From contig SVSK01000006.1 of assembly GCA_015064345.1 (NCBI GenBank), positions 1 through 56,574 on the forward strand: a DNA stretch of 56,574 nt, in the 5' to 3' direction. Origin of the DNA: Oscillospiraceae bacterium (GTDB lineage Bacteria > Bacillota > Clostridia > Oscillospirales > CAG-272). Under the pieces are notes generated by a model that was not told the origin of the DNA, made no database searches, and was given only the letters and a program-made list of their open reading frames with translations. The translations under genes were made by a program, and so were the position numbers. How positions within the stretch are numbered: position 1 is the first letter of the stretch; each line of letters starts with the position of its first letter. This document shows, piece after piece, positions 1,393 through 55,701 of the stretch.

Positions 1393-2445
1393 ATGACTGT
1401 GAAAAAAATACTGCCGACGGCTGCTGTTCTTTCAGCTCTTCCTCTCCTTTTGTCCTCTTGCTCTGATATCGGAAGTAAAGATGCCAGCACTTCCCTTGTA
1501 TATCTCATGGCGGCAATCTTCTCGTTGATACTGCTGGGAATGTGTCTGCTGATAAGGGACAAGGACCCGTGGCTCGTTGTGCTCTTTGCCTCGGTGCTTG
1601 TAGTAAATACAGGCTACTATATGCTATCCGTCTCATCCACTCTTCAATTCGCGCTTTGGGCTAACAGAATATCATACCTCGGTTCTGTTTTCCTCCCCAT
1701 TTCGATGCTGATGATCATTTTGAAAGCGGTAGACATTAAATTCAAAAAATGGTGTCCTTATGCCCTTTGCGGAATCGGTTCCGCTGTATTTCTTATTGCG
1801 GCAAGCCCGGGTATACTTGACATTTACTATAAGGAAGTTACACTTGTTACAAAGAACGGCGTATCCATGCTTGAAAAGGTATACGGTCCTTTGCATGTAG
1901 TTAACCTTATCTATCTTCTCGGCATTTTCTCCGCCATCGTTGCATCAATTATTTTAGCTATCGCAAAAAAGAAGATCAGCTCTCCCGTCAACTCTGTGAT
2001 ACTCGCCTCTGCAGTATTCATCAACATCGGCGTGTGGTTTATTGAACAGATCGTTGACATTGATTTTGAGGTGCTGTCCGTTTCGTATATCGTCAGTGAG
2101 ATCTTTCTTCTGGCAGTTAACGTGCTTATGGCGGAAAACGAACGTCTCAAAATCGGCTCCGAGGCAACCAATCAGAAAAAGCCTGAATCCGAGATGATAA
2201 GTGATACTGTTTTTGCCAAGGAGGATGTAGCCATCTACGTTTCGGGACAGTCAAGTCTTACTCAAACGGAACGTATGATTTTCGATCTCTACACCACGGG
2301 AAAAACCACCCGCGAGATCATGGCAGAAATGCATATTACGGAAAACACGCTAAAGTTCCACAACAAGAATATCTACAGCAAGCTGGGCGTATCGTCAAGA
2401 AAACAGCTTGTTGAAATATACAAGTACATCAGCACCGGTGAGTAA
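1393..2445 (+). CDS. Membrane-anchored one-component regulator: multi-TM (HisKA_7TM-like) sensor fused to LuxR HTH
   Basis: AAGGAGG before ATG 1393 (GTG 1399 also possible); about 7 hydrophobic segments; C-terminal LTQTERMIFDL..GKTTREIMAEMHITENTLKFHNKNIYSKLGVSSR is a LuxR HTH. Confidence 0.85.
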   Translation: MTVKKILPTAAVLSALPLLLSSCSDIGSKDASTSLVYLMAAIFSLILLGMCLLIRDKDPWLVVLFASVLVVNTGYYMLSVSSTLQFALWANRISYLGSVFLPISMLMIILKAVDIKFKKWCPYALCGIGSAVFLIAASPGILDIYYKEVTLVTKNGVSMLEKVYGPLHVVNLIYLLGIFSAIVASIILAIAKKKISSPVNSVILASAVFINIGVWFIEQIVDIDFEVLSVSYIVSEIFLLAVNVLMAENERLKIGSEATNQKKPESEMISDTVFAKEDVAIYVSGQSSLTQTERMIFDLYTTGKTTREIMAEMHITENTLKFHNKNIYSKLGVSSRKQLVEIYKYISTGE

Positions 2446-2464
2446 AGTCTCCGGTGTTTTTTGT
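2431..2464 (+). terminator. Intrinsic terminator, repeat family A copy 1 (contains the LuxR stop codon)
   Basis: AGCACCGGTGAGTAAAGTCTCCGGTGTTTTTTGT hairpin plus T tract; identical to 8508-8541. Confidence 0.8.
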
Positions 2465-2568
2465 GTCGAGCAGCAATTTTGCAGTCACGCTTACTTCGAA
2501 TTCCCCTAAGCAACAGAGAAATTTGCCCGTTCATTTTGGCGACATGGAAACAAATTTCTGCTCAGCGA

Positions 2569-2597
2569 TTGATTTTTTGTAGCATAGGTGATATAAT
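2569..2597 (+). promoter_or_regulatory. sigmaA-type promoter for GH3 gene
   Basis: TTGATT-17 nt-TATAAT with TG extended -10. Confidence 0.6.
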
Positions 2598-2642
2598 TAC
2601 GGCAAGAAAATATTGGCTCTTGGATCCGACAAAGGAGAGAAA

Positions 2643-4814
2643 ATGAAAATCGATCTTCAAAAATTACTTGAAAGCTTAACTCTTGAACAGAAGCTTGCAC
2701 AGCTTACACCTGCAGGACCGTACAAGGAATTTGTTGTTGATAATAAATTCAACAGCGAGCTTGCAAGAGAGGCATATCCGAACGGATTTTTCGGCATGAT
2801 GGTCCCTGTGGGAATCGAGCCTGAGGTGATCGGCGAATGGGTGTGCGAGCTGTATAAATGCTCTGCTGAACTGACCCCGATCCCGCCGATGGTTATGTGC
2901 GAATCTCTCCACGGCATACTCGGCAAGGGTGCGACCATGTTCCCCCAGTCCATCGGTATGGGCGGTACGTTCGATCCCGATCTTATGCGCCGCGTAGGTG
3001 AAGCGATCGGCAAGGAAGCCCGCGCTATGGGTATCAGACTGTCCCTTGCACCTGACCTTGACCTGGGACGCGACCCTCGTTGGGGAAGAATCGAGGAAAC
3101 CTACGGTGAATCCTCCTATCTCGTCAGAAAAATGGGTGAAGCATACGTAGAAGGCCTTGTAAGCGAGAACCGCGACTACGTTGCATGTGTCAAGCATTTT
3201 GCGGCTCACGGCCATCCCGTTGCGGGAATCAATCTCGCGCCTGTTACCGTAACTCCCCAGGAGCTTGAGGACAAATATCTCCCTCCCTTCAAGGCTGCGA
3301 TAGATGCAGGTGCTATGTCCGTAATGCCTGCGTATTCTGCGCTCAACGGCATTCCCTGCCACGGAAACAAGTTCCTTATGGACGACATTCTCAGACAGAA
3401 ATGGGGATTTGACGGCGTTGTTATAAGTGACTTCGGCGGAATCGAGATGATGAACGGCTTCCAGCGCTGTACCGAAAGTATGAAGGAATCGGGTAAGCTG
3501 GCGTTCTCCGTGGGTATTGACGTTGAGGCACCCTATCCCCGTACATACAGAGACCTGAAGGCTCTCGTAGAGGAAGGTGCAATTTCCATGGAGGCCATCG
3601 ACAAGTCTGTACTTCGTATCCTGAAGCTGAAGGCGGATATCGGTCTCTTCGATATGCAGCTTCCCACCATTGACAATATCAGACGCACTGTACGCTCCGA
3701 TGAGCACAAGGCACTCGCCCGTGAAGCAGCCCGCAAGTCCATGACTCTGCTTAAGAACAACGGCATGCTGCCTATTAACACCGACACCTGCAAGAAGATC
3801 GCAGTAGTCGGCCCTAACGCATACGTTGCACAGATCGGAGACTACGCTATTCCTCAGCCTGAGCTTAAGACACCGCTGACGGCAATTACGGAAAGGGCAA
3901 CAAAGTCTGACGTCACAGTATTCTCTGCAAAGGGATGCAGCATTTACGGAACTGACACATCCGGCTTTGCTGAAGCTGAAGAAGCGGCAAGAGAAGCAGA
4001 TGCAGTTATTTGCATCATTGGCGGACAGAGCTCCAGAGGCGCGGGTATCGGTTGGGGTACTGAGGACGAAACGATTCTGACCTGCGGTGAGGGCTGTGAC
4101 GCACACGATCTCATCCCCGGCGGACCTCAGCTGGATCTTGTAAGAAAGATGATCGAAGTTGGCAAGCCTGTGGCGATTGTTATGATAGACGGACGCCCGG
4201 AAACCTTGTTCGATGCAGCGGAAAACTGCGACGCACTTGTGGCGGCATGGTATCCCGGTGAAGAGGGTTCAAATGCCCTTGCTGAGCTGTTATTCGGAGA
4301 TGCAAACTTCTCAGGTAAGCTTCCCGTATCCTTCCCCCGCCATGTTGGACAGATCCCGATCTACCATGACAGAGTTCCCAGCGAATGCGGCTTCTACAAG
4401 TCTCCCGGCACACCCGAAAAACCCGGACGCGACTACGTATTCGGCCCCACCACACCTGAATTCGAATTCGGCTACGGTATCGGCTACTCTGAGATAAAAT
4501 ACTCCTCACTCTCCGCAGAACGCGTACAGGATGGCATAAAGGTTGCTGTTACCCTTGAAAACGCAGGCGAATACAACGCTGAAGAGTCCGTACTTGTATT
4601 CGTGCGCGACGAGGTGGCAAGTATGCCCCAGCCGATCAAAAAGCTGGTTGCATTTAAGAAAGCCAGCCTTGATCCGAGTAAAGCGGCTGAGACTGAAATA
4701 CTCATCCCGAATGAGGAGCTTATGTTCACGGGTGCGGATATGGTGAAGCGTCTTGAGCCCGGCTGGTTTACCGTAATGGTAGGCGGTCTTGAGACTCGTG
4801 TTTACGCCGAATAA
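2643..4814 (+). CDS. Glycoside hydrolase family 3 (beta-glucosidase/beta-xylosidase type)
   Basis: Motifs ESLHG, RDPRWGRIEETYGE, KHF, GFDGVVISD (nucleophile), AWYPGEEG, C-terminal fibronectin-like domain; AAGGAG RBS before ATG 2643; no signal peptide. Confidence 0.95.
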   Translation: MKIDLQKLLESLTLEQKLAQLTPAGPYKEFVVDNKFNSELAREAYPNGFFGMMVPVGIEPEVIGEWVCELYKCSAELTPIPPMVMCESLHGILGKGATMFPQSIGMGGTFDPDLMRRVGEAIGKEARAMGIRLSLAPDLDLGRDPRWGRIEETYGESSYLVRKMGEAYVEGLVSENRDYVACVKHFAAHGHPVAGINLAPVTVTPQELEDKYLPPFKAAIDAGAMSVMPAYSALNGIPCHGNKFLMDDILRQKWGFDGVVISDFGGIEMMNGFQRCTESMKESGKLAFSVGIDVEAPYPRTYRDLKALVEEGAISMEAIDKSVLRILKLKADIGLFDMQLPTIDNIRRTVRSDEHKALAREAARKSMTLLKNNGMLPINTDTCKKIAVVGPNAYVAQIGDYAIPQPELKTPLTAITERATKSDVTVFSAKGCSIYGTDTSGFAEAEEAAREADAVICIIGGQSSRGAGIGWGTEDETILTCGEGCDAHDLIPGGPQLDLVRKMIEVGKPVAIVMIDGRPETLFDAAENCDALVAAWYPGEEGSNALAELLFGDANFSGKLPVSFPRHVGQIPIYHDRVPSECGFYKSPGTPEKPGRDYVFGPTTPEFEFGYGIGYSEIKYSSLSAERVQDGIKVAVTLENAGEYNAEESVLVFVRDEVASMPQPIKKLVAFKKASLDPSKAAETEILIPNEELMFTGADMVKRLEPGWFTVMVGGLETRVYAE

Positions 4815-4845
4815 GTCGCGGATTTCCCGAAAATTACATAAAATC

Positions 4846-4945
4846 AAAAAGCCTTGCTGAGACAAATCGGCATGGCTTTTTTTGGTACTGTCACAAAAAA
4901 ATCCGAACCCTTTGCTGCTTGGCATTAGGTTCGGATTATTATTTT
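4846..4945. terminator. Two adjacent hairpins between convergent genes
   Basis: AAAAAGCC..GGCTTTTTTT (4846-4883) and AATCCGAACC..GGTTCGGATT (about 4900-4938). Confidence 0.7.
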
Positions 4946-4965
4946 ACTTATCGATCTATTAAGTC

Positions 4966-6351
4966 TTAACCGATCTTGGGAAGGCTTGCTGCTGCGATGG
5001 ACTGACCTACGCGGCGGCTGCTTTCGTCGGGAAGGTGAATTGTGATCTTTTCAGCGAGCTCGGGGAATTCTTCAACGAGTACCTTCTGAGCATTCTTGTA
5101 AAGGATGTTTCCGCCCTCACCGGAGGATACACGACCCATGAGAAGAACGTGCTTGATATCATAGAAGATTGCGTAGTAAGCTACAGCGTAGCCGAAATAT
5201 GCACCGATTGTCTCGTAGATCTTTACAGCGCGCTCGTCGCCTTCTGCCATAAGACCCTGAACGACCTTAAGCTTTTCAGCAGGAGATGCGCTCTCGTCAA
5301 GTTCGATTCCCGCAGCGGGAGCAAGCTTGATTACGGAATCCTGAGAGAAATACTTAACGCCGCAGCCGTAGTCGCCGGACCATTCGTCAACCATTGCATC
5401 CTTGTTGTAGTCAGCGGGAACGAATGCAAGCTCGTTGAGCCAGCCTGTGATGTTACCGTTGCCGTCAACGTATCCGCCGGCTTCACTTGTACCCATAGCA
5501 ACACCGAGAACGTTGGTGTCATCAAGATCCATTGCGCCTGCAAGAGCAGTAACGTCACCGTCGTTGGCAACTTCGATCGGAACGCCGCCAAGCTCCTTTG
5601 CGATGTCGGTGTAGATGCTCTTAACAACCTTTTCAAATGCTTCGGGGTTCTCGTTCTTTACCTTGAGGAAGAGGGAGGATGTCATAATGCGGTTTCCGAT
5701 TACAACGCCTGCTGTAGATACGCCGATAGCGTCAACTTTGGGCATCTTGGAAGCCGCAGTCTTCATAGCTTCCATAATTCCTTCGTAGTGGTACTGAGGA
5801 TCGTTCTGAAGCTTGGGGAACCAAACAACTTCTTCGGAGTAAGTAGCCTCACCGTTTACAACTGCGCTTACCTTACGGTCACTTCCGCCTGCGTCAAAGC
5901 CAATGCGGCAACCGTCAAGATGGCGGCCAACGGGGGATGCGGTCTCCTTTGATACGGGAGCTTCTTCAAAAGGAACGTGGATCACTTCAAAGGGAGCCTC
6001 GTAAACACCGGACATGAAGTCGCGGTCAAATGCGCGGATGCCGCTCTCAGAGTAATCCTCCTTAATTCTGTCAGCAATAACCTTTGAGCCTGCAATGATG
6101 ATCTTATAACCGCCGCGTACCCAGAGAAGAGTCTTGATGATTCTTTCAACAAAGTCGTGGTTTTCTTCATCGTGGCCTGTGCCGTCCTTGTATACGTCAA
6201 TGGTAAATACAGAGGTGAGACCGTCGTTTCTTTCAAGTCCGATAGTGAGCTTCTCACCGCCCTCAGCCTTTACTGCAGCTTCAAAATCGCGGTAAACAAC
6301 CGCCATCGGCATAAAACCGGGATCGAGGGGTGCATTAACTTTAAGCTTCAT
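4966..6351 (-). CDS. Long atypical ROK-family protein (putative sugar kinase)
   Basis: IGFDAGGSDRK phosphate-1 motif, ANDGDVTAL, GTSEAGGY; ~140-aa N-terminal extension; overlaps nagA by 11 nt. Confidence 0.8.
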   Translation of the reverse strand: MKLKVNAPLDPGFMPMAVVYRDFEAAVKAEGGEKLTIGLERNDGLTSVFTIDVYKDGTGHDEENHDFVERIIKTLLWVRGGYKIIIAGSKVIADRIKEDYSESGIRAFDRDFMSGVYEAPFEVIHVPFEEAPVSKETASPVGRHLDGCRIGFDAGGSDRKVSAVVNGEATYSEEVVWFPKLQNDPQYHYEGIMEAMKTAASKMPKVDAIGVSTAGVVIGNRIMTSSLFLKVKNENPEAFEKVVKSIYTDIAKELGGVPIEVANDGDVTALAGAMDLDDTNVLGVAMGTSEAGGYVDGNGNITGWLNELAFVPADYNKDAMVDEWSGDYGCGVKYFSQDSVIKLAPAAGIELDESASPAEKLKVVQGLMAEGDERAVKIYETIGAYFGYAVAYYAIFYDIKHVLLMGRVSSGEGGNILYKNAQKVLVEEFPELAEKITIHLPDESSRRVGQSIAAASLPKIG

Positions 6352-7492
6352 AAATCGTTGTACCTTTCTTTATAGTTCTGATTATGTTGATGTTTTCGTC
6401 AGCGATAATGATATCCGCATCCTTACCCTCTTCAAGAGAGCCGATACGGTTGTCGCAACGGATCGCCTTTGCAGGGTTGAGGGATGCCATCTTGAAGACC
6501 TCGTTTACGGGGAGGTCTGTGTGATCGAGAACGTTCTTCACCGCACTGTTGAGCTTTAGAACGCTACCTGCGATAGTACCGTCAGCGAGGCGGCACTCGA
6601 TTCCCTTGAGGAAGATAGGCTGTCCGCCAAGATCGTATTCACCGTCGGGCATTCCGCCTGCGCGAGTACAGTCTGTGATCAGCACCATCTTGTCTCCCTT
6701 GACCTTGGCAACGATTGAATAAAGGCCGGGATTGATGTGGAATGTATCTGCAATAACTTCAACAGAAACGTTATCGGATGCAAGAGCCGCACCAACAACA
6801 CCGGGGTTTCTGTGAGCAAGGGCTGACATAGCATTGAAGAGGTGGGTAGCATGGTTTACGCCGTCCTTAGCCGCACTCATAGCTTCCTCGAACTTTGCAT
6901 CTGTGTGACCCATGGAAACCAGCACGTTTGATTCCGCAGCCAGCTTCTTGATGCATGCGTGTCCCTCGTCCATTTCGGGAGCAAGTGTTACGGATGTGAT
7001 GATATCCGCGTTTTCGATGATGAAGTCAGCGTCAGGCTTAAGAATGTTCTCTTCTGCCTGTGCACCCTTCTTTGAGGGATTGATAAAGGGTCCTTCAGCG
7101 TGAACACCGATGATTTCGGCACCGCCCCATGTCTTGCTTTCTTCCTTGAGAGAGCGTACTGCGTTAAGAGCAGCGATGATCTGATCCTTTGAAACCGTCA
7201 TTGTGGTGGGGAGGAATGCGGTAACGCCGTTTTTGGCTACACCGTAAGCCATTTTTTTGATTCCCTCGGGTTTAGCATCGGAGGTATCCTCTCCGAGATA
7301 TCCGTGGATATGAATATCAATAAGTCCGGGTGCGACGTAATTGCCGCCTGCGTCGATCACGTCAGCGCCTGCAGGAACTTCGTCCACCAGTCCGCAGATC
7401 TTTCCGCTAACGCTGTCGAAAGCGAGAGATTTGCCGCATAAAACCGAATCGGGAAGAACGATTTTACCGTTGGTTATGTATGTCAGTGCCAT
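6341..7492 (-). CDS. nagA: N-acetylglucosamine-6-phosphate deacetylase
   Basis: PGLIDIHIHG, HAEGPFIN..KKGA, TLAPE, SMGHT, THLFNAM, LITD, IAGS, SLNPA. Confidence 0.97.
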   Translation of the reverse strand: MALTYITNGKIVLPDSVLCGKSLAFDSVSGKICGLVDEVPAGADVIDAGGNYVAPGLIDIHIHGYLGEDTSDAKPEGIKKMAYGVAKNGVTAFLPTTMTVSKDQIIAALNAVRSLKEESKTWGGAEIIGVHAEGPFINPSKKGAQAEENILKPDADFIIENADIITSVTLAPEMDEGHACIKKLAAESNVLVSMGHTDAKFEEAMSAAKDGVNHATHLFNAMSALAHRNPGVVGAALASDNVSVEVIADTFHINPGLYSIVAKVKGDKMVLITDCTRAGGMPDGEYDLGGQPIFLKGIECRLADGTIAGSVLKLNSAVKNVLDHTDLPVNEVFKMASLNPAKAIRCDNRIGSLEEGKDADIIIADENINIIRTIKKGTTIYEA

Positions 7493-7669
7493 ATTTTGTA
7501 GCTCCTTGTAAATGATTTCCTTGGGTCATAGTATAACAAAAATTAATGAATAATTTTTGAATTTTTTATGAATTTTATGTGTTGCGCCTTTATTTCGAAT
7601 GATAATTATGATAATATATTGTTGAACAAAATATCAATGCCCACCGGGCGTACAGATTGGAGAAAAATA

Positions 7670-8473
7670 ATGTATATTATTAGTGCAGTTGTTGAGAAAA
7701 ATCAGTCCAAAGTTGCATTGTTCGATAAAGAATACAAGTTTTTAGCAAAGAAAGAGGGCGCTGTGGCTGACGTTGCAGGACTCTGCTCCGAGATTATCAC
7801 AGAAGCGGGAATCAATGCTTCCGACGTAGCTTACGCAGGCGTTGCAGCCGATGAGATTCTCTCCGGCCTCGAAGAAAAGCTCGGTGTTCGCGTGCTCGGT
7901 ACAACGCTGATTAACGCAAAGGCTCTTGGCGAGGCATATGAGCTGAACGACGCTGACACTCTTGTAATCGTAAAGATCGACGAGACAGTAGAGTGCGGTA
8001 TAATCATGGACAAGAAGGCTTATACAGGCGCACACAACCAGAGCGCGAAGCTCGCTCATATGGTTATAGGCTTTGGCGGCTACGAATGCACTTGCGGCAG
8101 ACGCGGTTGCTTCGAGGCTTATGCAAGCATTTCCGGTCTTAACCGCATCGCGGCTGAATCCGGTGTTGCAGGTGCAGGGGAGCTTACACACGCACAGCTT
8201 TTCGCTATGGATACTCCCGAGGCAAAGAGCGCACAGAAGCTTTACGTTGAATATCTTGCAAGCGGTATTACAAATATCGTTAACCTTTTCCAGCCCCGTC
8301 ATCTCGTGCTTGATGGCGCATTCACAAAGGTTGGCGATGCGCTTATGACTCCCGTGATCGACATCATTCTCCGCGATCAGTACACACACAGCAACCCGAA
8401 CAAGTGCGAGATCAGATTTGCAAACACTGAAGCGGACACAGCACTTCTCGGTGCGGCACTGCTTGGCAGATAA
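7670..8473 (+). CDS. Degenerate ROK-family protein
   Basis: CTCGRRGCFEAYAS zinc motif and ALLGAA C-terminus retained; ATP and sugar motifs degenerate; GGAG RBS before ATG 7670. Confidence 0.85.
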   Translation: MYIISAVVEKNQSKVALFDKEYKFLAKKEGAVADVAGLCSEIITEAGINASDVAYAGVAADEILSGLEEKLGVRVLGTTLINAKALGEAYELNDADTLVIVKIDETVECGIIMDKKAYTGAHNQSAKLAHMVIGFGGYECTCGRRGCFEAYASISGLNRIAAESGVAGAGELTHAQLFAMDTPEAKSAQKLYVEYLASGITNIVNLFQPRHLVLDGAFTKVGDALMTPVIDIILRDQYTHSNPNKCEIRFANTEADTALLGAALLGR

Positions 8474-8507
8474 ATCTGAACAGCGGAACAAAATAATCAA
8501 ATACATA

Positions 8508-8541
8508 AGCACCGGTGAGTAAAGTCTCCGGTGTTTTTTGT
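8508..8541 (+). terminator. Intrinsic terminator, repeat family A copy 2
   Basis: Identical 34-mer to 2431-2464. Confidence 0.8.
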
Positions 8542-8670: not shown

Positions 8671-8706
8671 TTTAGTAAAATACAAGAAAACTCGGAGATA
8701 CACTAT

Positions 8707-9614: not shown

Positions 9615-9645
9615 AAAAAGCCCTACTGAAAAGTAAGGCTTTTTT
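9615..9645. repeat. Repeat family B hairpin / bidirectional terminator, copy 1
   Basis: AAAAAGCCCTAC-TGAAAA-GTAAGGCTTTTTT between convergent genes. Confidence 0.8.
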
Positions 9646-19871: not shown

Positions 19872-19905
19872 AACAAAAGCCTTACTTCATCGGTAGGGCT
19901 TTGTT
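19872..19905 (+). repeat. Repeat family B hairpin/terminator, copy 2 (inverted relative to the others)
   Basis: AACAAAAGCCTTAC-TTCATCG-GTAGGGCTTTGTT. Confidence 0.8.
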
Positions 19906-21963: not shown

Positions 21964-21993
21964 AAAAGCCCTACCGTAAGGTAAGGCTTTTTT
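21964..21993. repeat. Repeat family B hairpin / bidirectional terminator, copy 3
   Basis: AAAAGCCCTAC-CGTAAG-GTAAGGCTTTTTT. Confidence 0.8.
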
Positions 21994-21998
21994 CTTTA

Positions 21999-23969
21999 TT
22001 ATTCTTCTCTGATGTGGTAATACATGGACGGGTACGCCTGACCAACGGTGAAGCGGAGGATTCCGTCCTCGTAGGTAGTGGGAAGCGCGCCTATGTAGAA
22101 GCCCTCTGCACTTACCGCCCATACTCTCATGGTGGGGCAGGATGTGCGGATCTCGATATCAGCCTCGATAACCTCAACGGTAATGGGAGCATTTCCGTAT
22201 TCCAGCATCAGGTCTCCGTCAAACTTTGCGTCCGTGTTCTTTGCTCTGCCTACGGTTGTGAGAAGCATGTTGTCGCACTTGTCTATGGGCTCGTCGGACA
22301 GGGATGAGAGCGCAACTACCGCAAAGTCAGTCTTGCCCTCTACAGAAAGGCCGTCGATCTCGATCTTGCCGTTCTTCTCAAGGAAGCCGTAGATGCACTT
22401 TGACTTGGGTGTGTCGATAGTGCCGTAGTTCTTGTCCCAGTTGCGGTACATCTCGCCTGTGTCGGAGCGAACCTCCTTCTTTGAGAGATCCACGAGAGCG
22501 GTCTTCTCGTCGATCACGCGGTCTGCGGTACTTTCACCCTCGTCATATTCCATGCCGATCTTCGTGTACTCGGACACAGCGGAAAGTTCATCAAAGGGGC
22601 AGGTGTTCATGGTCAGCGCCTTCATTGCTGTGGTGTTTGGAGATTCCTTTACGTCTCCGCGGCGGGTCATAAGTGCGGCATGATAGAAGAGACCGAACTT
22701 TGCGGGGTCGTTCCATGTGGAGAAGATACCCTCTCTGTAACCGGTGCCGCCGATTGATTCCGCGCTGATCTCCTTGCCGAGCATCTTCATGTTCTCAAGA
22801 TGTGAGGAGTAGGCGTATGTGTGAATTGCAAATCCCGACCAGCCCTGAAGCAGTCCCGCCGCCGCAAAAAGAACGGGAGACTCCGCTCTGTATTCGTTGG
22901 GCCAGGGCATATCCCACTCGGAGCAGAACATGGGTCTGCCGAAGGATCTTGCCGCCGCCATGTGATGGAGGAATCCGTCGGGTGCCTGTGTGAGTGCGGT
23001 GTTGAGGAATCGCTGGTCCCCCGGATTCCAACGCCAATCGTAGAAGTAGAAGTGGCTGTCGTTGAAGTCGCACACGTTGTTGGGCTTTCTCTGCTCATTT
23101 GTAACTGCCCAGTTTGTGCCGCAGATGGGAATTTTCACCCCGATCTCACGGAGGCAGTTGATCATATCAAGGTAATGATCCTCTTGCAGCTTCACGCGGA
23201 AAGCGGACTGGATGGGATCGTTAAAATCGTTGATATCACAGGTTGCGGCGTCAATGTCAGCACCTGTTTCCTTTGCCCACTCTGCTAAAAGTCCGCGGTA
23301 GATGGTAACGTAAGGCTCGATGTCGATCTTGTAAATGGAGAAGTCGCTCTCATTTACGATCTCCGCCATAACGATTGCAGGCTCGTCCTTGTACGCCACG
23401 CCTGTGAACTCGTTAACGTGATTCCACAAGTCTCTTGCAAGCTCCTTTTGAAGTTCAACGATGCGAGGGGCGAAGTAGTTGTAAGGCTTGCTGCCGTCCT
23501 TCAGAAGAAAAGCATTCTCAACCTCATCCCCTGTCTTGAACTTGCGGTAGGTGTACATATCCATGTAGGTATAGATACCCTCTTCCTTGAGGCAGTAGAT
23601 GAGATAGTCAAGCCGTCTCATGCTCTCGGGGTCAAAGGTCTGTGTGTTCTTATGGTGAGGTCCTTTAGTGAACTGGAAAATGTTCGGGGTCGCCCACTCT
23701 GCGTCAAGCTGATGAAGTCTTACAATGTTGCAGCCGATCTTTGCAAGTCGCTTGGCGAATTTTTCCGCGTAATCGTAGTCAGGGAAGTTGTGGCCGCTGT
23801 TTACGTTAGTACCCCAGAAGCGGGCAACGGTGCCATCCTCGAACACGAATCTGTCACCGTCCGCTTTAAGAAAACCGTGCTTGCCCGCAGGCTTTTCGTC
23901 TTCAAAAATAAAGCTTATGTCAAAAGGTGCGTCGTATGGATCAGCGGGAAAAGGTATGTATCTTGACAT
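21999..23969 (-). CDS. Clan GH-A glycoside hydrolase (GH5/GH148-like), cytoplasmic
   Basis: PAGKHGFL..FWGTN..GCNIVRLHQLD, YKDEPAI..EIVNE (acid/base), DSHFY, CSEW (nucleophile); no signal peptide. Confidence 0.75.
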   Translation of the reverse strand: MSRYIPFPADPYDAPFDISFIFEDEKPAGKHGFLKADGDRFVFEDGTVARFWGTNVNSGHNFPDYDYAEKFAKRLAKIGCNIVRLHQLDAEWATPNIFQFTKGPHHKNTQTFDPESMRRLDYLIYCLKEEGIYTYMDMYTYRKFKTGDEVENAFLLKDGSKPYNYFAPRIVELQKELARDLWNHVNEFTGVAYKDEPAIVMAEIVNESDFSIYKIDIEPYVTIYRGLLAEWAKETGADIDAATCDINDFNDPIQSAFRVKLQEDHYLDMINCLREIGVKIPICGTNWAVTNEQRKPNNVCDFNDSHFYFYDWRWNPGDQRFLNTALTQAPDGFLHHMAAARSFGRPMFCSEWDMPWPNEYRAESPVLFAAAGLLQGWSGFAIHTYAYSSHLENMKMLGKEISAESIGGTGYREGIFSTWNDPAKFGLFYHAALMTRRGDVKESPNTTAMKALTMNTCPFDELSAVSEYTKIGMEYDEGESTADRVIDEKTALVDLSKKEVRSDTGEMYRNWDKNYGTIDTPKSKCIYGFLEKNGKIEIDGLSVEGKTDFAVVALSSLSDEPIDKCDNMLLTTVGRAKNTDAKFDGDLMLEYGNAPITVEVIEADIEIRTSCPTMRVWAVSAEGFYIGALPTTYEDGILRFTVGQAYPSMYYHIREE

Positions 23970-23986
23970 TGTTCTGCTCCTATATA

Positions 23987-25384
23987 TTATTTCTTGATTA
24001 TTTCACGTACTGCGGCAATACTTTCTCGAACCAGTACCTCACCTGCGTCAGCTCCGCTCTGACACGCGAAAATCACTGCGCTGTAGCCGCCTCGCTTCAT
24101 GGCATCAGGGGTCGGGAGGTAGTTGAGGTCGTCGTCCGTCATCTGCACGTCCAGCACATGAGCTTCGGGGCACGCGGCCTTGATTCTGTCGGCATACTCA
24201 ACAAACAGCTCATAGGGATTGGAAATGAGCACAGTCTTACCCATTCTGAGAAGATGCACCGCACCGTCAACGATCTTGCGTCCGCGTCTCTGTCTGCCGA
24301 TTATGGTGTCAGCACTGCACAGCTCAAACACATCCGTACCGTCGGTTTCCTCGAAGATGATAAGCTCGCCTTCGCTCTTGCCGTACTTTTTCTCCAGTGC
24401 CGCCATGTCAAGGGTAGCTTTCTCGTATTCTTCATCGGTGGGATTCCAGATAGGCAGATCCACGTGCTTAACAAAGTGATAAGCCTCGCCCTCGTTTCGG
24501 TATAGAGGCGCATCCTTTAAGGCGACGATCTCTCGGCCTATCTTCTCGCCCAGATCGCGGCAGCCCTCTTCTTCCCACATGCTGACTTCCCCCGGTATCG
24601 TGGAGAGAAGATCGCGTGGAGAAAGGTCGCCAGCCGAGCCGGAAAGCGAAACAAGCGGGATGTTCCCGATGTGCTTTTCCATGTAGTCACGGGTATATCC
24701 CCAGAAGTCGGAGGAGATCACGCACTGATTCTCAATAACCTGCGCGGGACAGGGTACGTTTGCCACGATGCCTTTGAGCTCACCGTCAGTCGCCCGTTTT
24801 GCGTAGATAATGCTCATTGGACCGCCGTCATGGTTTTCCATTTTGAGAAAGTTTGCCTCATGAGTCGAGCCGTACATCACAGCGTAGCCTTCCTTGTACA
24901 CTGTGCGGCGGGAGTAAGAGGTCATGATTCTCGATACAGCCACCTCGGTATAGCACTCCTCCATCGATTCGGTCGCCTGCTTTACCGCATCCGCGATACT
25001 GTCTGCAACGAAAAGCGCGTATTCCTCAGGGGTGGTCAAGTCATCGTACAGCTTTTCCTCCGCCTTGAAGGAGCAAAGCATGCACTCCTGCTCACGTCCT
25101 ACGTAAGGTGCTGTGTGAGTGTGAGTAGCGGAGATTGCGATATCGTCATGGGTGAATCCGGGCACAAAAGCCGCAATCCTTTCCGCAGCCATCTGTGGCA
25201 CGGGAGGCATAATGTGAAGCAGGTCCACCGACGCCCAGACAGTTATCCTGCCCTCCGTCTCTATTGCCATGGCTGTGGTATATATTCTCGAATGTATTTT
25301 TTCGGCTATTCTGACGTTGAACTGTCCCTGCAGCGCTACCTTGCCCGCGGGAGTAATGTCCGCCTTTCCGAATCCTATCTTCAT
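23987..25384 (-). CDS. Neutral/alkaline ceramidase-fold metallo-amidohydrolase-like protein
   Basis: IGFGKADITP, SATHTHTAP, ISSDFWG, GSAGDLSP, ELFVEY, YLPT..GGYS; GGAGG RBS before ATG 25384. Confidence 0.7.
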   Translation of the reverse strand: MKIGFGKADITPAGKVALQGQFNVRIAEKIHSRIYTTAMAIETEGRITVWASVDLLHIMPPVPQMAAERIAAFVPGFTHDDIAISATHTHTAPYVGREQECMLCSFKAEEKLYDDLTTPEEYALFVADSIADAVKQATESMEECYTEVAVSRIMTSYSRRTVYKEGYAVMYGSTHEANFLKMENHDGGPMSIIYAKRATDGELKGIVANVPCPAQVIENQCVISSDFWGYTRDYMEKHIGNIPLVSLSGSAGDLSPRDLLSTIPGEVSMWEEEGCRDLGEKIGREIVALKDAPLYRNEGEAYHFVKHVDLPIWNPTDEEYEKATLDMAALEKKYGKSEGELIIFEETDGTDVFELCSADTIIGRQRRGRKIVDGAVHLLRMGKTVLISNPYELFVEYADRIKAACPEAHVLDVQMTDDDLNYLPTPDAMKRGGYSAVIFACQSGADAGEVLVRESIAAVREIIKK

Positions 25385-25488
25385 AGTGACCTCCGCATCA
25401 AAATTTACCACTTAAACTATACAACAACACACCGCGTTAAGTCAAGTATTTTGCGAAAAAATGCACGTTGTATCTTCTCTCAAACACC

Positions 25489-25517
25489 TTGACATCAATG
25501 TTCTGTTTTAGTAAAAT
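25489..25517 (+). promoter_or_regulatory. sigmaA-type promoter
   Basis: TTGACA-17 nt-TAAAAT. Confidence 0.6.
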
Positions 25518-25551
25518 AGAGTCAACCACTTACTCATCCGGAGGTAAAACT

Positions 25552-26880: not shown

Positions 26881-26886
26881 AATAAT

Positions 26887-26918
26887 AAAAAAGCCCTACC
26901 GACCAAGGTAAGGCTTTT
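26887..26918. repeat. Repeat family B hairpin / bidirectional terminator, copy 4
   Basis: AAAAAAGCCCTAC-CGACCAAG-GTAAGGCTTTT. Confidence 0.8.
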
Positions 26919-26922
26919 ATCT

Positions 26923-27714: not shown

Positions 27715-27716
27715 GA

Positions 27717-28904: not shown

Positions 28905-28953
28905 AATATGTCTCCTGACTGATTATTATTGATTTGTCAACCATTTCAAGTCC

Positions 28954-28982
28954 ATTTTACTCAAATACCCAACTAAAGTCAA
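28954..28982 (-). promoter_or_regulatory. sigmaA-type promoter of the spt-SDR operon
   Basis: TTGACT-17 nt-TAAAAT, about 50 nt upstream of the ATG, which has an AGGAG RBS. Confidence 0.6.
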
Positions 28983-29046
28983 TATATTTCGGGAAATTAA
29001 TTCAAATATTTTAACTAATCGACACGCCGAGATCCTTTTCCGGCAC

Positions 29047-29076
29047 AAAAAAGCCCTACTGTAAAGTAAGGCTTTT
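29047..29076 (-). repeat. Repeat family B hairpin/terminator, copy 5
   Basis: AAAAAAGCCCTAC-TGTAAA-GTAAGGCTTTT, 3 nt after the YwaF-like stop. Confidence 0.8.
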
Positions 29077-44028: not shown

Positions 44029-44072
44029 AACAAAAAACCTCGGATCGCTCCGGGGTTTTGTTTTTTATTCGG
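44029..44072 (+). repeat. 44-bp direct repeat, left copy (terminator hairpin; includes antitoxin stop)
   Basis: AACAAAAAACCTCGGATCGCTCCGGGGTTTTGTTTTTTATTCGG, identical to 44828-44871. Confidence 0.95.
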
Positions 44073-44376
44073 ATACTATTCCCGATCTTCTTGGAAAGCT
44101 TGGATCGTTTTTTGTCAGCGTAAGAAGTCTGCAGGCCGCTCCCTCAGGGTGATTTCTTCCTGACTCCCACGCCTCAACTGTTTTGGGTGACACCCCCATA
44201 TATTTCGCAAACATAACCTGCGTCAGTCCGGTATTCCCTCTGATCACCTTGATCTCACTTGCGGAAAAATATTCTACAGGAGCAACAGACAATACTGTCT
44301 TTTTTGCCTTAAGATTCCCTTTTTCATACTCTATCGCCTGCTCAAGCCCTGTTTTTATTTCATCAAATATTCCCAT
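44065..44376 (-). CDS. higA: HigA-like Xre/HTH antitoxin
   Basis: IFDEIKTGLEQAIEYEKG..IR...GLTQ..FA...GVS..TVEAWESGR..P; RBS spacing favours ATG 44376 over GTG 44382. Confidence 0.88.
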   Translation of the reverse strand: MGIFDEIKTGLEQAIEYEKGNLKAKKTVLSVAPVEYFSASEIKVIRGNTGLTQVMFAKYMGVSPKTVEAWESGRNHPEGAACRLLTLTKNDPSFPRRSGIVSE

Positions 44377-44391
44377 GTTCACCGTCTCCTT

Positions 44392-44739
44392 TTAGGTATT
44401 ATTATCTTCAAGCTGCTTTTGAAGTATACCGATCAACTGTTTTAGCTCATTCCTTTCAGATTGGGTCAGATTGTCCTTTTCATTCTTAGGATATGCAGTT
44501 ATGAGAAATATCTTCTCATATATTTCAAAATCAACGTATATGACACGAATACTTCCGCTCTTTCCGCGATGCTCATAAGCGAATCTCATCTTTCGAATAC
44601 CCCCGGTACCCTGCATTACGTCTCCCACTTTCGGGTCAGCAAGTATTTCCTCTTGAAGTCTTCGCAGATCGCTGTCGTCAAGCCCTAATGATTTCCATTT
44701 TGCTCTGAATAATGGAAGCTCAATAAATGAACGTGTCAT
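44392..44739 (-). CDS. higB: RelE/HigB-family toxin
   Basis: FIELPLF..P..GDVMQGTGGIRKMR..RGKSGSIRVIY..LITAYPKNEKDNLT; toxin precedes antitoxin; GAGG RBS before ATG 44739. Confidence 0.9.
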   Translation of the reverse strand: MTRSFIELPLFRAKWKSLGLDDSDLRRLQEEILADPKVGDVMQGTGGIRKMRFAYEHRGKSGSIRVIYVDFEIYEKIFLITAYPKNEKDNLTQSERNELKQLIGILQKQLEDNNT

Positions 44740-44773
44740 GTCTTTCCTCTTGCCAAGTAATATTTTCATTTCA

Positions 44774-44802
44774 ATTATACCCTATTTAATAGGGTATGTC
44801 AA
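44774..44802 (-). promoter_or_regulatory. Consensus promoter with perfect palindromic operator (TA autoregulation)
   Basis: TTGACA-17 nt-TATAAT; ATACCCTATT-T-AATAGGGTAT at 44777-44797 fills the spacer. Confidence 0.85.
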
Positions 44803-44827
44803 GGGTTTTGATAAAATTTTACCCGTT

Positions 44828-44871
44828 AACAAAAAACCTCGGATCGCTCCGGGGTTTTGTTTTTTATTCGG
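44828..44871 (+). repeat. 44-bp direct repeat, right copy (terminator of the SulP gene)
   Basis: Identical to 44029-44072. Confidence 0.95.
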
Positions 44872-46675: not shown

Positions 46676-46720
46676 AAAAAGCCCCCAAAGTGAGCTTAAA
46701 ACTCAACAAAGGGGCTTTTT
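46676..46720 (-). terminator. Terminator, duplicated with the SBP gene (copy 1)
   Basis: AAAAAGCCCC..GGGGCTTTT; related to 48437-48482. Confidence 0.7.
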
Positions 46721-48436: not shown

Positions 48437-48482
48437 AAAAAGCCTCAAAAGTGAGCATAGAACTCAACAGAAGAGGCTTTTT
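48437..48482 (-). terminator. Terminator, duplicated with the SBP gene (copy 2)
   Basis: AAAAAGCCTC..GAGGCTTTTT. Confidence 0.7.
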
Positions 48483-50880: not shown

Positions 50881-50900
50881 TTTCTTCTCCTTATTTTGAG

Positions 50901-50924
50901 AAAGGAACCCTCTCGAGTCCCTTT
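50901..50924 (-). repeat. Repeat family E hairpin, copy 1
   Basis: AAAGGAACCCTCTCGAGTCCCTTT; relatives at 52798-52825 and 55672-55701. Confidence 0.7.
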
Positions 50925-50938
50925 CCAATGTCGATTAT

Positions 50939-52797: not shown

Positions 52798-52825
52798 AAA
52801 AGGAACTCTTTCGAGTCCCTTTTTT
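52798..52825 (-). repeat. Repeat family E hairpin/terminator, copy 2
   Basis: AAAAGGAACTCTTTCGAGTCCCTTTTTT. Confidence 0.7.
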
Positions 52826-52832: not shown

Positions 52833-55529
52833 TTACTTTACTCCGTAGTAAGCCGCAAGAGCCGCGATATCGTCCGCTGTAAGAACGCCGCTTACGATAA
52901 CGATGTCGTCAATGGTTGCGGGAAGTGCGTCGTGAGCCTTGGTTACGTCCTGGCCGAGGATAAGTCCGCTCTCACCTGTCATGGATCCGTCCTTCATCTC
53001 CTCGGGGATCTGTAGTGTGCTGTACGCGCCGAAGTCATAAGCCACGCTTACAGTACCTGCTTCGCGGTCAACTGAGAGGATAACGTGTACCCAGCCGTCC
53101 TGCCAGTCGGAAGGCAGCTTGAATTTGCCCTCGAAGGCGTTCTCACCGTCACCGTAGTTGAATGCGAGAAGGAAATCGTTGTAATCAGTGCTGCCGTGGA
53201 ACTCGTAGCCAAGGGTGATCTCGATACCGTTAGCTTCGTTTTCTGTCCATTTCTTGTTTGTGAGAACTACAGGGTTTCTGTCAACCTTGGAGAACTTGTG
53301 AAGAGGTGTCTTGAACCAGAATGCGATAGAGAAGCTGTCTGTGCCGGGAGCAAATTCGGGGATCTCAACGTATCCGCCATCAAGCTTAACTGCCTCGCCG
53401 TAGAAGCCGTCAACGTACTGTACCCCCTCGGATGCCGCCGCACCTGAGTTCTTGTCAAGACTCTGGTAAGCGAGGATCTTGCCGGGCTGAAGGGCAGTTG
53501 TAATTCCACCCTCGGGAGCTGTCTGACTTACGTTGTCACGGTGATCCACGTTATAGGGGATTGTAGGCTCGGGACGTACTGTTGCGTCCACACCCTCAAA
53601 CAGCCCGCCGGGAACTGTAGAGGTCCAAGACTCGGGAATGTCATATCCGAGAGCGTGGAGAGTGATAGCCGCGATGTCTGTGATTCTGGGGGCGGTCTCA
53701 TTTCCGTCGCTGTCAAGAGAGGTCATCTTACCGCCGTTAATTACAGTCTTACCTGCAACGGCGATCATGATATTCATCTCACCGTCAGTGTCACCGCCGT
53801 GTGTACCGCTGGGTGTACCGCCGTGGTCAGCAGTGAAGATCACAAGTGAGTTCTTGAGATAGCCCTGCTCGCTGAGTGCCTTGAAGAGCTGTCCGATGTA
53901 GCCGTCGGTGATCTCAAGCTGGTTTACATAGTGCTGGCTGCCAAATCCCGTGCCGTGACCCTTGCCGTCAACCTGGTCATACTGAACGTAGAGCACCTTC
54001 GGGTCGTTTGTCTTGATATATTCAATGATCTGTGCGGTATTGTCAGCGTCATCGGAGGGATATGCCTTATAAACGCCGATATTTTCTTCAATGATACCGC
54101 TGTTAATGTCGCCCCATGTTGTGAAGGAAGCGAGAGTTGCGTCGGGATCAGCCTCGCGGATAACACGCATGAAGCTGGGATAAGCGGAATCGGGATCGAA
54201 GGGATCGCTGGTGGTGGAGTTTGTCTCACCGTGGATCTCGGGCTCAACACCGTGGAACATGGAGGTCCATGCCTGTGTACTGATGGAGGGAGTTACAGTC
54301 TGTGCAGAATATGTGACAGTACCCTCGGACACTATCTTATTGATATAGGGTGTTTCAGCGTAATCGAACGTACCTGCGCCGTCAACACCGATGATGATAA
54401 CTCTCTCGTATGTATCTGTTCCGTCGTCCTCATATAGTGCGGAAACGTCAAGATCGTCAGCCATTTCCGTGTTGTCGGTGTCATAGAGAGGAATACCCTC
54501 GGGACGCTCGCCCGCAACGTAGCCGTTAAAGAATCCGTCGGGAACCATAGAACACCAGCTCTCGGGCTGCTTTATGCCAAGAGCATAAGCAACGATTGCC
54601 GCTGAATCAAGAGTGAGCATAGACTTGGAGTCGAACTCACTGTTTACAGTCTTACCTGTCGCCGCAAAAGTGCAGTTTGTTACCACTGACTTTGTTGAGT
54701 CGACATGATATTTTCCGCTTCCGCCATGGTCGGTTGTAACGATGAAGAGTGTGTTTTCAATGTTACCCTTAGCCTCAAGAGCAGCGTAGATGTCGGCAAT
54801 ATATTTGTCAGTACCTTCAAGAACGGATATATACTTCTGTCCGCCGTAATCGTTTGCAGCACCGGATTTGTCAACTTCATCAAGCTGAACGAACAGAAGC
54901 TTGGGATCGTTTGCCTTAATGTAGTCTACAACCTTCTTAGTAAGAGTCGCGTCAGAGTCAGCGGTGTCCTTGTAAACGTCGATGTTGTCTTCAATAAGAC
55001 CCACATTAAAGTCTGACCATGTTGCAAAGGAAGCGATAGCCGCATCGGGATATGCTTCTCTTGCAAGACGGAAGATAGTCGGGTACTTGGAATTTGAAAG
55101 GTAAGGACCTTCGTCAACACCGCCCATGTTTACCCAGTGCATATCGGGAGTTGTACCTGTGAGGATAGAACCCCAGGATTCAGCATGGTTTATGGGAGCA
55201 GAAGCGGCTACTCTGTAGTTAATAATGCCGTTTTCGAATATCCTATCGAACTCGGGCATATTGGCCTTTCTGATGAATGAGCCTGCACCGTCGATACCGA
55301 TGATAACAACGCGATCGTAAACAGTTGCCTTATCACGTGTTGTATCAAGGCCTACGGGCTTAGCTACACCCTCTTCAGGCTCCGCTTCCGCCACGTTATC
55401 CTGTGCAAGCATTGTGCGGATGAGCTTGGCGAGAGTAAATCTCTTCAAAAACGGGCTTGCGGCAGTGGCGGAGATCACCATACCGAAGCACATTGAGAGA
55501 ACGAGAATAAGTGCAATTATCTTCTTCAT
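52833..55529 (-). CDS. Secreted protein: two AP/NPP-superfamily domains plus LamG-like domain
   Basis: AAGGAG RBS before ATG 55529; signal peptide; two Y.RV.IIG.DG..DHGG units; LamG-like C-terminus as in the neighbours. Confidence 0.88.
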   Translation of the reverse strand: MKKIIALILVLSMCFGMVISATAASPFLKRFTLAKLIRTMLAQDNVAEAEPEEGVAKPVGLDTTRDKATVYDRVVIIGIDGAGSFIRKANMPEFDRIFENGIINYRVAASAPINHAESWGSILTGTTPDMHWVNMGGVDEGPYLSNSKYPTIFRLAREAYPDAAIASFATWSDFNVGLIEDNIDVYKDTADSDATLTKKVVDYIKANDPKLLFVQLDEVDKSGAANDYGGQKYISVLEGTDKYIADIYAALEAKGNIENTLFIVTTDHGGSGKYHVDSTKSVVTNCTFAATGKTVNSEFDSKSMLTLDSAAIVAYALGIKQPESWCSMVPDGFFNGYVAGERPEGIPLYDTDNTEMADDLDVSALYEDDGTDTYERVIIIGVDGAGTFDYAETPYINKIVSEGTVTYSAQTVTPSISTQAWTSMFHGVEPEIHGETNSTTSDPFDPDSAYPSFMRVIREADPDATLASFTTWGDINSGIIEENIGVYKAYPSDDADNTAQIIEYIKTNDPKVLYVQYDQVDGKGHGTGFGSQHYVNQLEITDGYIGQLFKALSEQGYLKNSLVIFTADHGGTPSGTHGGDTDGEMNIMIAVAGKTVINGGKMTSLDSDGNETAPRITDIAAITLHALGYDIPESWTSTVPGGLFEGVDATVRPEPTIPYNVDHRDNVSQTAPEGGITTALQPGKILAYQSLDKNSGAAASEGVQYVDGFYGEAVKLDGGYVEIPEFAPGTDSFSIAFWFKTPLHKFSKVDRNPVVLTNKKWTENEANGIEITLGYEFHGSTDYNDFLLAFNYGDGENAFEGKFKLPSDWQDGWVHVILSVDREAGTVSVAYDFGAYSTLQIPEEMKDGSMTGESGLILGQDVTKAHDALPATIDDIVIVSGVLTADDIAALAAYYGVK

Positions 55530-55566
55530 AATTTGTCTCCTTGTTTGCTTTTTTTGACTTACCCAA

Positions 55567-55595
55567 AGTATACCACCCTGCATGAGCAAATGCAA
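55567..55595 (-). promoter_or_regulatory. sigmaA-type promoter
   Basis: TTGCAT-17 nt-TATACT with TG extended -10. Confidence 0.6.
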
Positions 55596-55671
55596 TACAG
55601 AAAATCCGCCTTGATACCAATTTTGTGGGATCATCCAAAACGCTCGCATGCCTATTGTGCAATGTGACATC

Positions 55672-55701
55672 AAAAAAAGGAACCCGATATCGAGTTCCTT
55701 T
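55672..55701 (-). repeat. Repeat family E hairpin/terminator, copy 3
   Basis: AAAAAAAGGAACCCGATATCGAGTTCCTTT. Confidence 0.7.

Follow-up and report, generated by a model that had tools for sequence, protein, structure and literature searches.

Near-identical intrinsic terminators on both sides of accessory genes point to insertion with long target duplication in a gut Oscillospiraceae genome

Nobusato et al. are said to have described insertion with long target duplication in 2000. Furuta, Abe and Kobayashi (2010) define it for restriction-modification genes, mostly of naturally competent Proteobacteria, by repeats of more than 30 bp and an insert shorter than 20 kb, where mobility genes are absent and a related genome has the site empty (PMC2853133). 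These restriction-modification cases have repeats of variable length (46-47 bp in several) that often span a stop or start codon, and their mechanism is given as unknown (PMC2853133). The word 'terminator' is absent from the main text of the 2010 paper (PMC2853133), and we found no link between long target duplications and terminators in the open-access full-text literature. Here we describe local families of terminator hairpins in a contig of an Oscillospiraceae bacterium (SVSK01000006.1, 56,574 nt; the whole of this stretch is called the window), and similar pairs elsewhere in its genome.

The events that we describe share with this class the lack of a linked mobility gene, variable direct repeats of more than 30 bp and a single copy at the empty site. 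They differ from it in their cargo, here toxin-antitoxin genes, stand-alone regulators and sugar-use genes in a gut Clostridia metagenome-assembled genome (MAG), in the duplicated stretch, which is nearly always an intrinsic terminator, and in their footprint, a genome-wide decay of terminator similarity with distance. Repeat size and insert size agree with the published definition, the scanned proteins include no mobility genes, and three loci (C63, C59 and B3-B5, below) have an empty site in the closest relative; none was obtained for families A and C themselves. The data support a terminator-centred, genome-wide variant of a known event class that is itself unexplained.

Integron integrases read structure more than sequence, and hairpin-targeting transposable elements, such as insertion sequence (IS) elements that insert into REP sequences, also leave target-site duplications, which are long in the IS1202 group. 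The present loci are resembled by integron cassette arrays and by CALINs, attC clusters that lack an integrase, in their gene-plus-hairpin units, the local similarity of their hairpins and a possible looping out between copies, but here the terminators are native to each target and locus-specific, and there is no single attI array. Transposon target-site duplications also lie directly repeated on both sides of an insert, whereas here the duplication is variable (29-64 nt), the cargo consists of ordinary genes and the scanned proteins include no transposase, which sets these loci apart from transposons and MITEs alike. No terminal inverted repeats were noticed in the junction contexts that were read, and no dedicated inverted-repeat search was made. 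Unlike the attL/attR pairs of integrative elements, each pair has its own sequence, and no integrase was found in the scanned cargo. REP and BIME elements have many dispersed copies, in contrast to the A and C cores, which occur at two sites only, and to family B with seven copies. Tandem duplication with divergence fits families D and E, in each of which a paralog is followed by a related terminator, and fails for A, B and C.

The window is the complete 56.6-kb contig C14 of assembly G000, a MAG of 2.02 Mb in 84 contigs that is 79% complete. Below, G000 denotes the window's own genome, C with a number one of its contigs, and family C a hairpin family in the window. Relatives were represented by one genome per species; the closest, G014, is another species with 77-92% nucleotide identity in the compared genes, and the genus set comprised 53 genomes (52 besides G000). 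All five local hairpin families (A to E) listed by the first-pass annotation were recovered at their positions. Its division of them also held: the genes in front of the D and E copies are paralogs, and those preceding A, B and C come from unrelated Pfam families. The predicted intrinsic terminators of A, B, C and E have energies of -11 to -17 kcal/mol as RNA, carry T-tracts and lie 4-30 nt behind stop codons.

Family C is a direct repeat of 44 nt (44/44 identical) whose core is found nowhere else in the assembly. Its parts are:

44029..44072, unstranded: C copy 1, a bidirectional terminator behind a dehydrogenase gene (43121-44014, plus strand)
44073..44827, minus strand: the cargo, 755 bp with a promoter, a RelE-like toxin and an HTH_3 antitoxin
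44802-44774, minus strand: the cargo promoter, a perfect TTGACA-17-TATAAT
44392-44769, minus strand: the RelE-like toxin
44065-44382, minus strand: the HTH_3 antitoxin
44828..44871, unstranded: C copy 2, the same 44 nt, 5 nt behind the stop codon of SulP (44876-46522, minus strand)

The last 8 nt of copy 1 encode the end of the antitoxin and its stop codon (TTA at 44065-44067, TAA on the minus strand). This is one of the two places where the repeat had been noted to supply a stop codon; the other, 2443-2445 in A copy 1, was found as well. The antitoxin and its homolog in G050 stop at one and the same residue position, and the toxin is patchy in the genus, occurring in 7/53 genomes. Independent Logan contigs span copy 1 to copy 2, among them X8, from another study, with 6 differences in 829 nt. 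They end inside the copies (X1 at 44037-44854, X8 at 44043-44871), so that they can neither reveal an empty site nor bridge the repeat, and none of the joints listed for Logan contigs crosses 44029-44871. Metagenome contigs queried with SulP were no closer than 75% amino acid identity.

In G014 the terminator behind the dehydrogenase gene has a 26-nt core identical to family C, and there too it is present twice, as copies of about 46 nt that lie 2069 bp apart and have repeat boundaries different from those in G000. The G014 cargo consists of an HTH protein, a zinc-ribbon protein and a 278-aa protein, and the far neighbour also differs from that in G000. These two arrangements are best read as independent events at one terminator. 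Homologs of the toxin-antitoxin locus were inspected in five other genomes, and four had no flanking exact repeats of at least 14 nt. The closest toxin homolog (87% identity; locus L248, G050:C265:1-2759) lies between diverged, coding-like direct repeats about 1475 bp apart, which may represent a long target duplication of another size class.

Family A is a direct repeat of 51 nt (47/51 identical) whose core occurs only at its two sites in the assembly:

2414..2464, plus strand: A copy 1, comprising the last 10 codons and TAA stop of a 7TM-LuxR gene (1342-2445), a hairpin (2431-2458) and a T-tract
2465..8490, unstranded: the enclosed block, 6.0 kb with four genes between the copies
2613-4814, plus strand: GH3 glycosidase, with a promoter-like site at 2569-2597
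4966-6351, minus strand: ROK gene
6341-7492, minus strand: amidohydrolase gene
7568-8473, plus strand: second ROK gene
8491..8541, plus strand: A copy 2, non-coding, 18 nt past the ROK stop codon

The TAA stop of the LuxR gene (2443-2445) sits within the hairpin loop of copy 1. Hairpin and T-tract are the same in the two copies, and all 4 mismatches fall within the stretch that copy 1 uses as coding sequence. The GH3 gene of G014 is on one contig and its ROK-amidohydrolase-ROK genes are on another, each with a different terminator, and the LuxR gene was not found there, which leaves the A locus without a usable comparison. The G014 GH3 terminator, AAAAAGGAACTC ATTT GAGTTCCTTTT (L128, G014:C12, about 20-45 nt past the stop codon), resembles window family E, despite the GH3 gene and the family E genes being unrelated.

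Together with twelve pairs on other contigs, A and C make up 14 terminator-only pairs, spread over at least 12 contigs. All 14 are direct repeats of 29-64 nt with sharp ends (one of the twelve further repeats is 29 nt), and eight are 100% identical. Family A encloses 6.0 kb in repeats of 51 nt, family C 0.76 kb in repeats of 44 nt, and the twelve others 0.28-1.8 kb. Each pair encloses one to five genes of accessory type, beside mostly housekeeping genes. The cargo includes the RelE-like toxin with its HTH antitoxin, four XRE-type regulators (one with TPR repeats), LysR, AraC/GyrI and DUF6809 proteins and several proteins without a Pfam match. Flanking genes identified by Pfam include GroEL, ClpX, ArgH (argininosuccinate lyase), NFACT, UppP, FtsH, an M20 peptidase and an SSF transporter; several others are unmatched. 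The Pfam-scanned cargo and flank proteins contain no transposase, integrase or other mobility domain; the scan left out open reading frames (ORFs) below about 87 aa and was uninformative for a 183-aa cargo protein on C31.

In all 14 pairs the stop codon of a cargo gene lies -7 to +121 nt from a repeat copy that is oriented for its termination (40 nt or less in 13/14), and by our reading about 9-10 pairs carry a promoter-like site in the correct orientation at the opposite end; three of these sites match the consensus at 12/12 positions. The identities of 44/44, 50/50 and 64/64 include loops and flanks, and the C37, C59 and C63 pairs show few differences, mainly in the loop. In 5-6 pairs the repeat is longer than the hairpin and takes in unique flank or coding sequence. 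This extra stretch measures about 20 nt in A, where it is part of the LuxR coding sequence, 22 nt with a stop codon at C30, 27 nt at C19, 6 nt in family C and 10 nt in its G014 copy. As there is no homology in such sequence, conversion between independent terminators is insufficient to explain these repeats. For two junctions the cargo has homologs elsewhere, and at both of them the repeat begins with 8 nt that are the same as the cargo gene's native end (GAATAATC at C30, CCGAATAA at family C), which suggests that joining may have taken place at microhomology.

Genome-wide, a scan of G000 for hairpins with T-tracts gave 3002 candidates, and the 949 with folding energies of -9 kcal/mol or lower were merged into 730 sites. 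The 266,085 pairs of sites were compared by local alignment in both orientations, and a score of at least 20 was counted as similar. Unfiltered, similar pairs numbered 54/1162 below 5 kb, 8/844 at 5-10 kb, 9/1064 at 10-20 kb, 0/1019 at 20-40 kb, 1/292 beyond 40 kb on the same contig and 104/261,704 between contigs. To take out paralogs and tandem arrays, a filter then discarded every pair for which BLAST gave a match longer than 100 nt no farther than 500 nt from both sites. The decay with distance that the first-pass annotation had proposed to look for among non-paralogous terminators was seen: similar pairs fell from 19/1162 below 5 kb and 16/1908 at 5-20 kb to 0/1311 beyond 20 kb on the same contig, against a background of 77/261,704 (0.03%) between contigs. 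Relative to different contigs the odds ratios were 56 (p=6e-26) and 29 (p=1e-17) for the two nearer classes; these p-values are too strong because pairs within one family are non-independent, and the effect size is unaffected. In a separate terminator scan, counts showed no excess over shuffles (20 against 20.1 expected, 18 against 17.4 and 17 against 15.0), so that the signal is the similarity of strong hairpins and not hairpin number.

A terminator-blind survey of short repeats (24-90 nt, at least 90% identity) gave 1885 pairs, 1730 of them without long homology nearby. Isolated local direct repeats (up to 5 kb apart) had a strong terminator in both copies in 16/80 cases, and local inverted repeats in 0/17. 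The other surveyed repeats were fragments of coding paralogs, members of dispersed families and a few further intergenic duplications. Outside G000, a 400-kb sample of G033, from the same order, had 2/448 similar non-paralog pairs below 5 kb and 0/15,483 farther apart; a 400-kb sample of G014 had 2/318 below 5 kb, 1/710 at 5-20 kb, 1/1125 beyond and 3/10,408 between contigs. With 2-4 pairs per sample, these counts are a hint that local terminator similarity extends beyond G000.

Nine loci were compared with relatives. The first-pass annotation had proposed mapping strain-variable gene boundaries onto terminators; gene-content breakpoints against the nearest species do fall on the repeated terminators, with an alignable single-terminator empty site in G014 at three loci (C63, C59 and B3-B5). 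On C63, the NFACT and GH25 genes are convergent in G014 and have one common terminator, which aligns to both G000 copies; the 1.3-kb regulator module between these copies is missing in G014. An exact 14-mer seed search of the 2.5 kb downstream of NFACT in 62 other species found no duplicate of the terminator region, with two hits of 16-19 nt, and the NFACT-locus event thus appears specific to G000, though diverged duplicates could be missed. The C63 module (C63:56591-57891; locus L010 2592-3892) consists of an HTH_3-TPR regulator with a 50-codon ORF just upstream and looks like a peptide-sensing regulator pair; as many as 32 matches to its regulator family occur in a single genome of the genus, and the best match to the C63 copy is only 42% identical.

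On C59, an SSF transporter gene and a 210-aa gene are adjacent in G014 with one orthologous terminator. The G000 locus is longer by 2.1 kb and holds two neighbouring insertions, one with a 34-nt terminator duplication. The adjoining 1.3-kb insert (268-aa and 83-aa ORFs) is bracketed by a perfect 41-nt direct repeat (C59:5025-5065 and 6323-6363, L009) that is hairpin-free and consists of the last codons and stop of the 210-aa gene; both inserts are missing in G014. The process is therefore not strictly hairpin-specific.

At the family C locus the same terminator is duplicated around other cargo in G014, as described above, and the ArgH locus is empty in G024 with unalignable terminators. The remaining four loci (C30, C15, C37 and A) are rearranged or lie at contig ends. 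The three genes of C30 are on three separate G014 contigs, and its cargo regulator shares 89% identity with a gene that G014 has at another locus, compared with 80% and 70% for the flanks. Relatives have different spacers without a similar hairpin at the GroEL locus on C15, and G014 contigs end at the C37 locus. Wherever the origin of the repeated terminator could be tested, it was native to the target site and not to the cargo (4/4 cases). Also on C15, an 80-nt intergenic element (L001:3075-3156) has at least 8 copies across G014 contigs at 90-96% identity and is a dispersed repeat or small RNA.

The third empty site belongs to family B, whose five window copies have identical stems, AGCCCTAC / GTAAGGCT, and different loops:

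9615..9644, minus strand: B copy 1, 30 nt behind a DUF1622 gene (9674-10051, minus strand) and also facing an AP_endonuc_2 gene (8659-9600, plus strand)
19876..19902, plus strand: B copy 2, inverted relative to the others, 15 nt behind an AP_endonuc_2 gene (19025-19861)
21964..21991, minus strand: B copy 3, between a convergent 796-aa ORF (ending at 21950, plus strand) and a GH5-like gene (21999-23969, minus strand)
21992..29048, unstranded: the B3-B5 block, 7 kb with the GH5-like, ceramidase-like and 470-aa genes, B4, a short-chain dehydrogenase and an aminotransferase
26889..26918, minus strand: B copy 4, between the 470-aa gene (25468-26880, plus strand) and the dehydrogenase gene (26923-27726, minus strand)
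29049..29076, minus strand: B copy 5, 4 nt behind TMEM164 (29080-29784, minus strand), upstream of the aminotransferase promoter region

In the window, each copy follows a stop codon at a distance of 4-30 nt, and the predicted transcript contains the better-pairing strand. The 2.02-Mb assembly holds seven copies, five within 20 kb in the window and the other two on C38 and C54. In G014 a 929-aa gene and TMEM164 have one common B-like terminator; together with its left flank it aligns to B3, and together with its right flank to B5. The 7-kb block is missing from this site. The block's GH5-like and ceramidase-like genes lie about 7-10 kb away in G014 with a different terminator, its 470-aa gene is on another G014 contig, and its dehydrogenase and aminotransferase genes were not found in G014. 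The GH5-like/ceramidase-like pair (window 21999-25411 against G014:C1:38404-41790, 93% and 81% amino acid identity) has changed sides between the two genomes relative to the AP_endonuc_2 and 796/929-aa genes, a local translocation that is bounded by a B hairpin in G000.

The B stems fall into two variants. One, with a C that gives a C-A mismatch on one strand and a G-U pair on the other, occurs seven times in G000 and in none of the 52 other genus genomes. The perfect variant is absent from G000; G014 has three copies, all on one contig in a span of 20.4 kb, and G009 and G006 have one copy each. Two of the three G014 copies are at sites orthologous to G000 copies; B2, for example, is orthologous to G014:C1:44753, with the loop TTCATCG in both. 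Since orthologous sites carry species-specific stem variants, conversion among copies or parallel change is needed. The loops of B1, B5 and B3 are one to two steps apart, with one compensatory pair among the changes, and the constancy of the stem despite loop change is only partly explained. A pattern like that of family B was seen in G033 (G033:C1:146340-146768), where two terminators 405 nt apart have identical stems, AAAAGTCCCGC / GCGGGACTTTT, and unrelated loops.

We consider it likely that A, C and at least B3-B5 arose, like about a dozen further pairs, by insertion with long target duplication, and that local terminator families record gene-content change. A module of a promoter and one to five genes, lacking a terminator of its own, would be joined into the spacer behind a resident gene, and 29-64 bp with the resident terminator (A-tract, stem-loop, T-tract and sometimes flanking bases or last codons) would be left on both sides of the insert. 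Judging from the anatomy, one copy would then serve the resident gene and the other the newcomer, sometimes giving its stop codon; insulation from neighbouring genes would exist as soon as the insert is in place, and the two direct repeats could permit its precise loss. Young events would be identical (family C) and older ones would differ mainly in the loop (B, C37, C59 and C63), and copies within a genome may also be homogenised (B). As to joining, we infer a recombinase-independent route, either microhomology-guided offset joining or a replication template switch at the hairpin, in which the ends of the incoming DNA would pair on opposite sides of the hairpin and fill-in synthesis would copy it twice. 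ComEC is present and Ku was not found, which does not discriminate between mechanisms. Cruciform resolution as the source of the duplication was rejected on reasoning, as flanks beyond the palindrome would stay uncopied, and mRNA retroposition was likewise rejected because the cargo includes a promoter.

Several points weigh against insertion with long target duplication, in addition to the overstated p-values. Polarity (insertion or deletion) is by parsimony only, because the nearest relative is another species and there is no same-species pair with and without an insert. Alignable single-terminator empty sites were found at only 3/9 loci. Homology that ends at a stop codon is weak evidence on cargo ends, because non-coding DNA diverges fast. 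The terminator function of the hairpins is predicted from sequence alone, and a genome of 79% completeness in 84 MAG contigs is a weakness in itself. Family B, with one stem variant per species, misfits a simple history of duplication followed by divergence.

The species-specific B stem, present in all copies including those at sites orthologous between G000 and G014, would be expected if neighbouring genes' own terminators were made alike by short-tract conversion or template switching primed in A- and T-tracts, with no insertion at all, and both repeat ends do lie within such tracts in about 9-10 of the 14 pairs. As a full account, such concerted evolution is nonetheless unlikely: the repeats of A, C, C19, C30 and the G014 copy enter unique flank or coding sequence, G014 has a single terminator without the enclosed genes at three loci, and conversion would not pick cargo of accessory type. 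Conversion probably acts in addition to insertion, not instead of it. Family B might otherwise be a REP- or MITE-like element, a small mobile hairpin whose landing sites are behind genes and which is no by-product of gene insertion. This reading is in keeping with seven copies, two of which are on other contigs, whose loops vary while the stems do not, and with three clustered copies in G014. We regard it as improbable, as the copies number only seven, with five inside 20 kb, and each follows a stop codon by 4-30 nt in the orientation of a terminator, with neither flanking target duplications nor a partner transposase, and as B3 and B5 bracket a block that is missing in G014.

The gene-hairpin-gene-hairpin layout and the excisable form of cargo between two terminators are cassette-like, and a recombinase encoded elsewhere that recognises folded hairpins could in principle insert circular cassettes, each with one hairpin, as in integrons or CALINs. 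We think this very improbable. The best match to TIGR02249 in this 79% complete genome scored 52 bits against a cut-off of 265, so that no IntI was found by this model, and the matches below cut-off, on C61 and C44, are tyrosine recombinases of a generic kind. The hairpin differs from locus to locus and is native to the target in all testable cases; stems are perfect or near-perfect and GC-rich, T-tracts are present, there are no common core sites, the families have no motif in common and repeat ends vary; and one event duplicated 41 nt without a hairpin. Inspection showed no attC features (core triplets, extrahelical bases or an array), and no attC covariance model was run. Insertion of promoter-bearing genes at terminators with duplication of the hairpin, as put forward by the first-pass annotation, is supported by the empty sites and the decay with distance, but its 'integron-like' label stands only as a loose analogy, there being no IntI, no attI array and a different hairpin at each locus. 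Finally, terminators share an A-tract, a GC stem and a T-tract, and D and E truly derive from paralogs; even so, we give almost no credence to chance convergence, hidden paralogy or a metagenome assembly artefact, given the full identities that include loops and flanks, the low between-contig background, the unrelated Pfam families of the flanking genes and the Logan contigs from another study that also span C copy 1 to copy 2.

Insertion at terminators with long target duplication would be one way for a bacterium to gain genes without a transposase or integrase, and single-gene gain outside recognisable mobile elements is poorly understood. Its footprint, nearby near-identical terminators around non-homologous genes, can be searched for in any genome; local terminator families would mark recently acquired genes in MAGs, where such repeats break short-read assembly graphs at exactly these points. 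Long target duplication would thereby be tied to a defined structure, the terminator, and hairpin-stalled template switching and offset microhomology joining become testable. A broader and doubtful extension, which we offer only tentatively, is that intrinsic terminators are generic recombinase-free landing pads: given their common A-tract/hairpin/T-tract plan, any DNA from between two terminators, such as a promoter with its genes, might use microhomology to pair on both sides of a resident hairpin where a fork has stalled or a break is offset, and would be copied in with the hairpin duplicated. If true, gene gain by this route would be general and reversible, and the newcomer would already be insulated. 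The local terminator families would be a dated footprint, in which loops diverge and stems are later homogenised, and it would become clear why related species differ by wholesale replacement of terminators and not by their drift.

Families D and E are tandem gene duplications in which the terminator was carried along; the two D paralogs are 79-85% identical over their length. The copies are:

46676..46720, minus strand: D copy 1, a long terminator hairpin behind the paralog at 46727-48307
48437..48482, minus strand: D copy 2, behind the paralog at 48490-50109
50900..50926, minus strand: E copy 1, behind the phosphodiesterase/LamG paralog at 50939-52699
52798..52823, minus strand: E copy 2, behind the paralog at 52833-55673
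55672..55701, minus strand: E copy 3, behind the LamG paralog at 55718-56566

Elsewhere in G000, arrays of identical terminator-like hairpins spaced 90-450 nt apart lie inside longer tandem repeats (C31:23972-24748, C20:2160-2523, C69:1544-2043 and C78:9601-9934); they were set aside as paralog arrays. A dispersed repeat of about 55 nt with an internal palindrome, on C32 (7.4-14.8 kb), C51, C64 and C74, starts with TGTCATTCTGAGC and contains TCGAAGAATCT ... GATCCTTCGA. It is accompanied by AT-rich TATTTATTCTTTATTCT runs, and this family is unrelated to terminators.

The Pfam gene content of the window is ordinary (an Rnf operon, glycosidases, sugar kinases, transporters and a single toxin-antitoxin pair), and Rfam and tRNA scans of it gave zero matches. 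The sequencing runs that contain the stretch are faeces and ruminant gut metagenomes. A 354-aa ORF at 11177-12241, without a Pfam match, has internal repeats at 11241-12025 with a period of about 460 nt and 73% identity.

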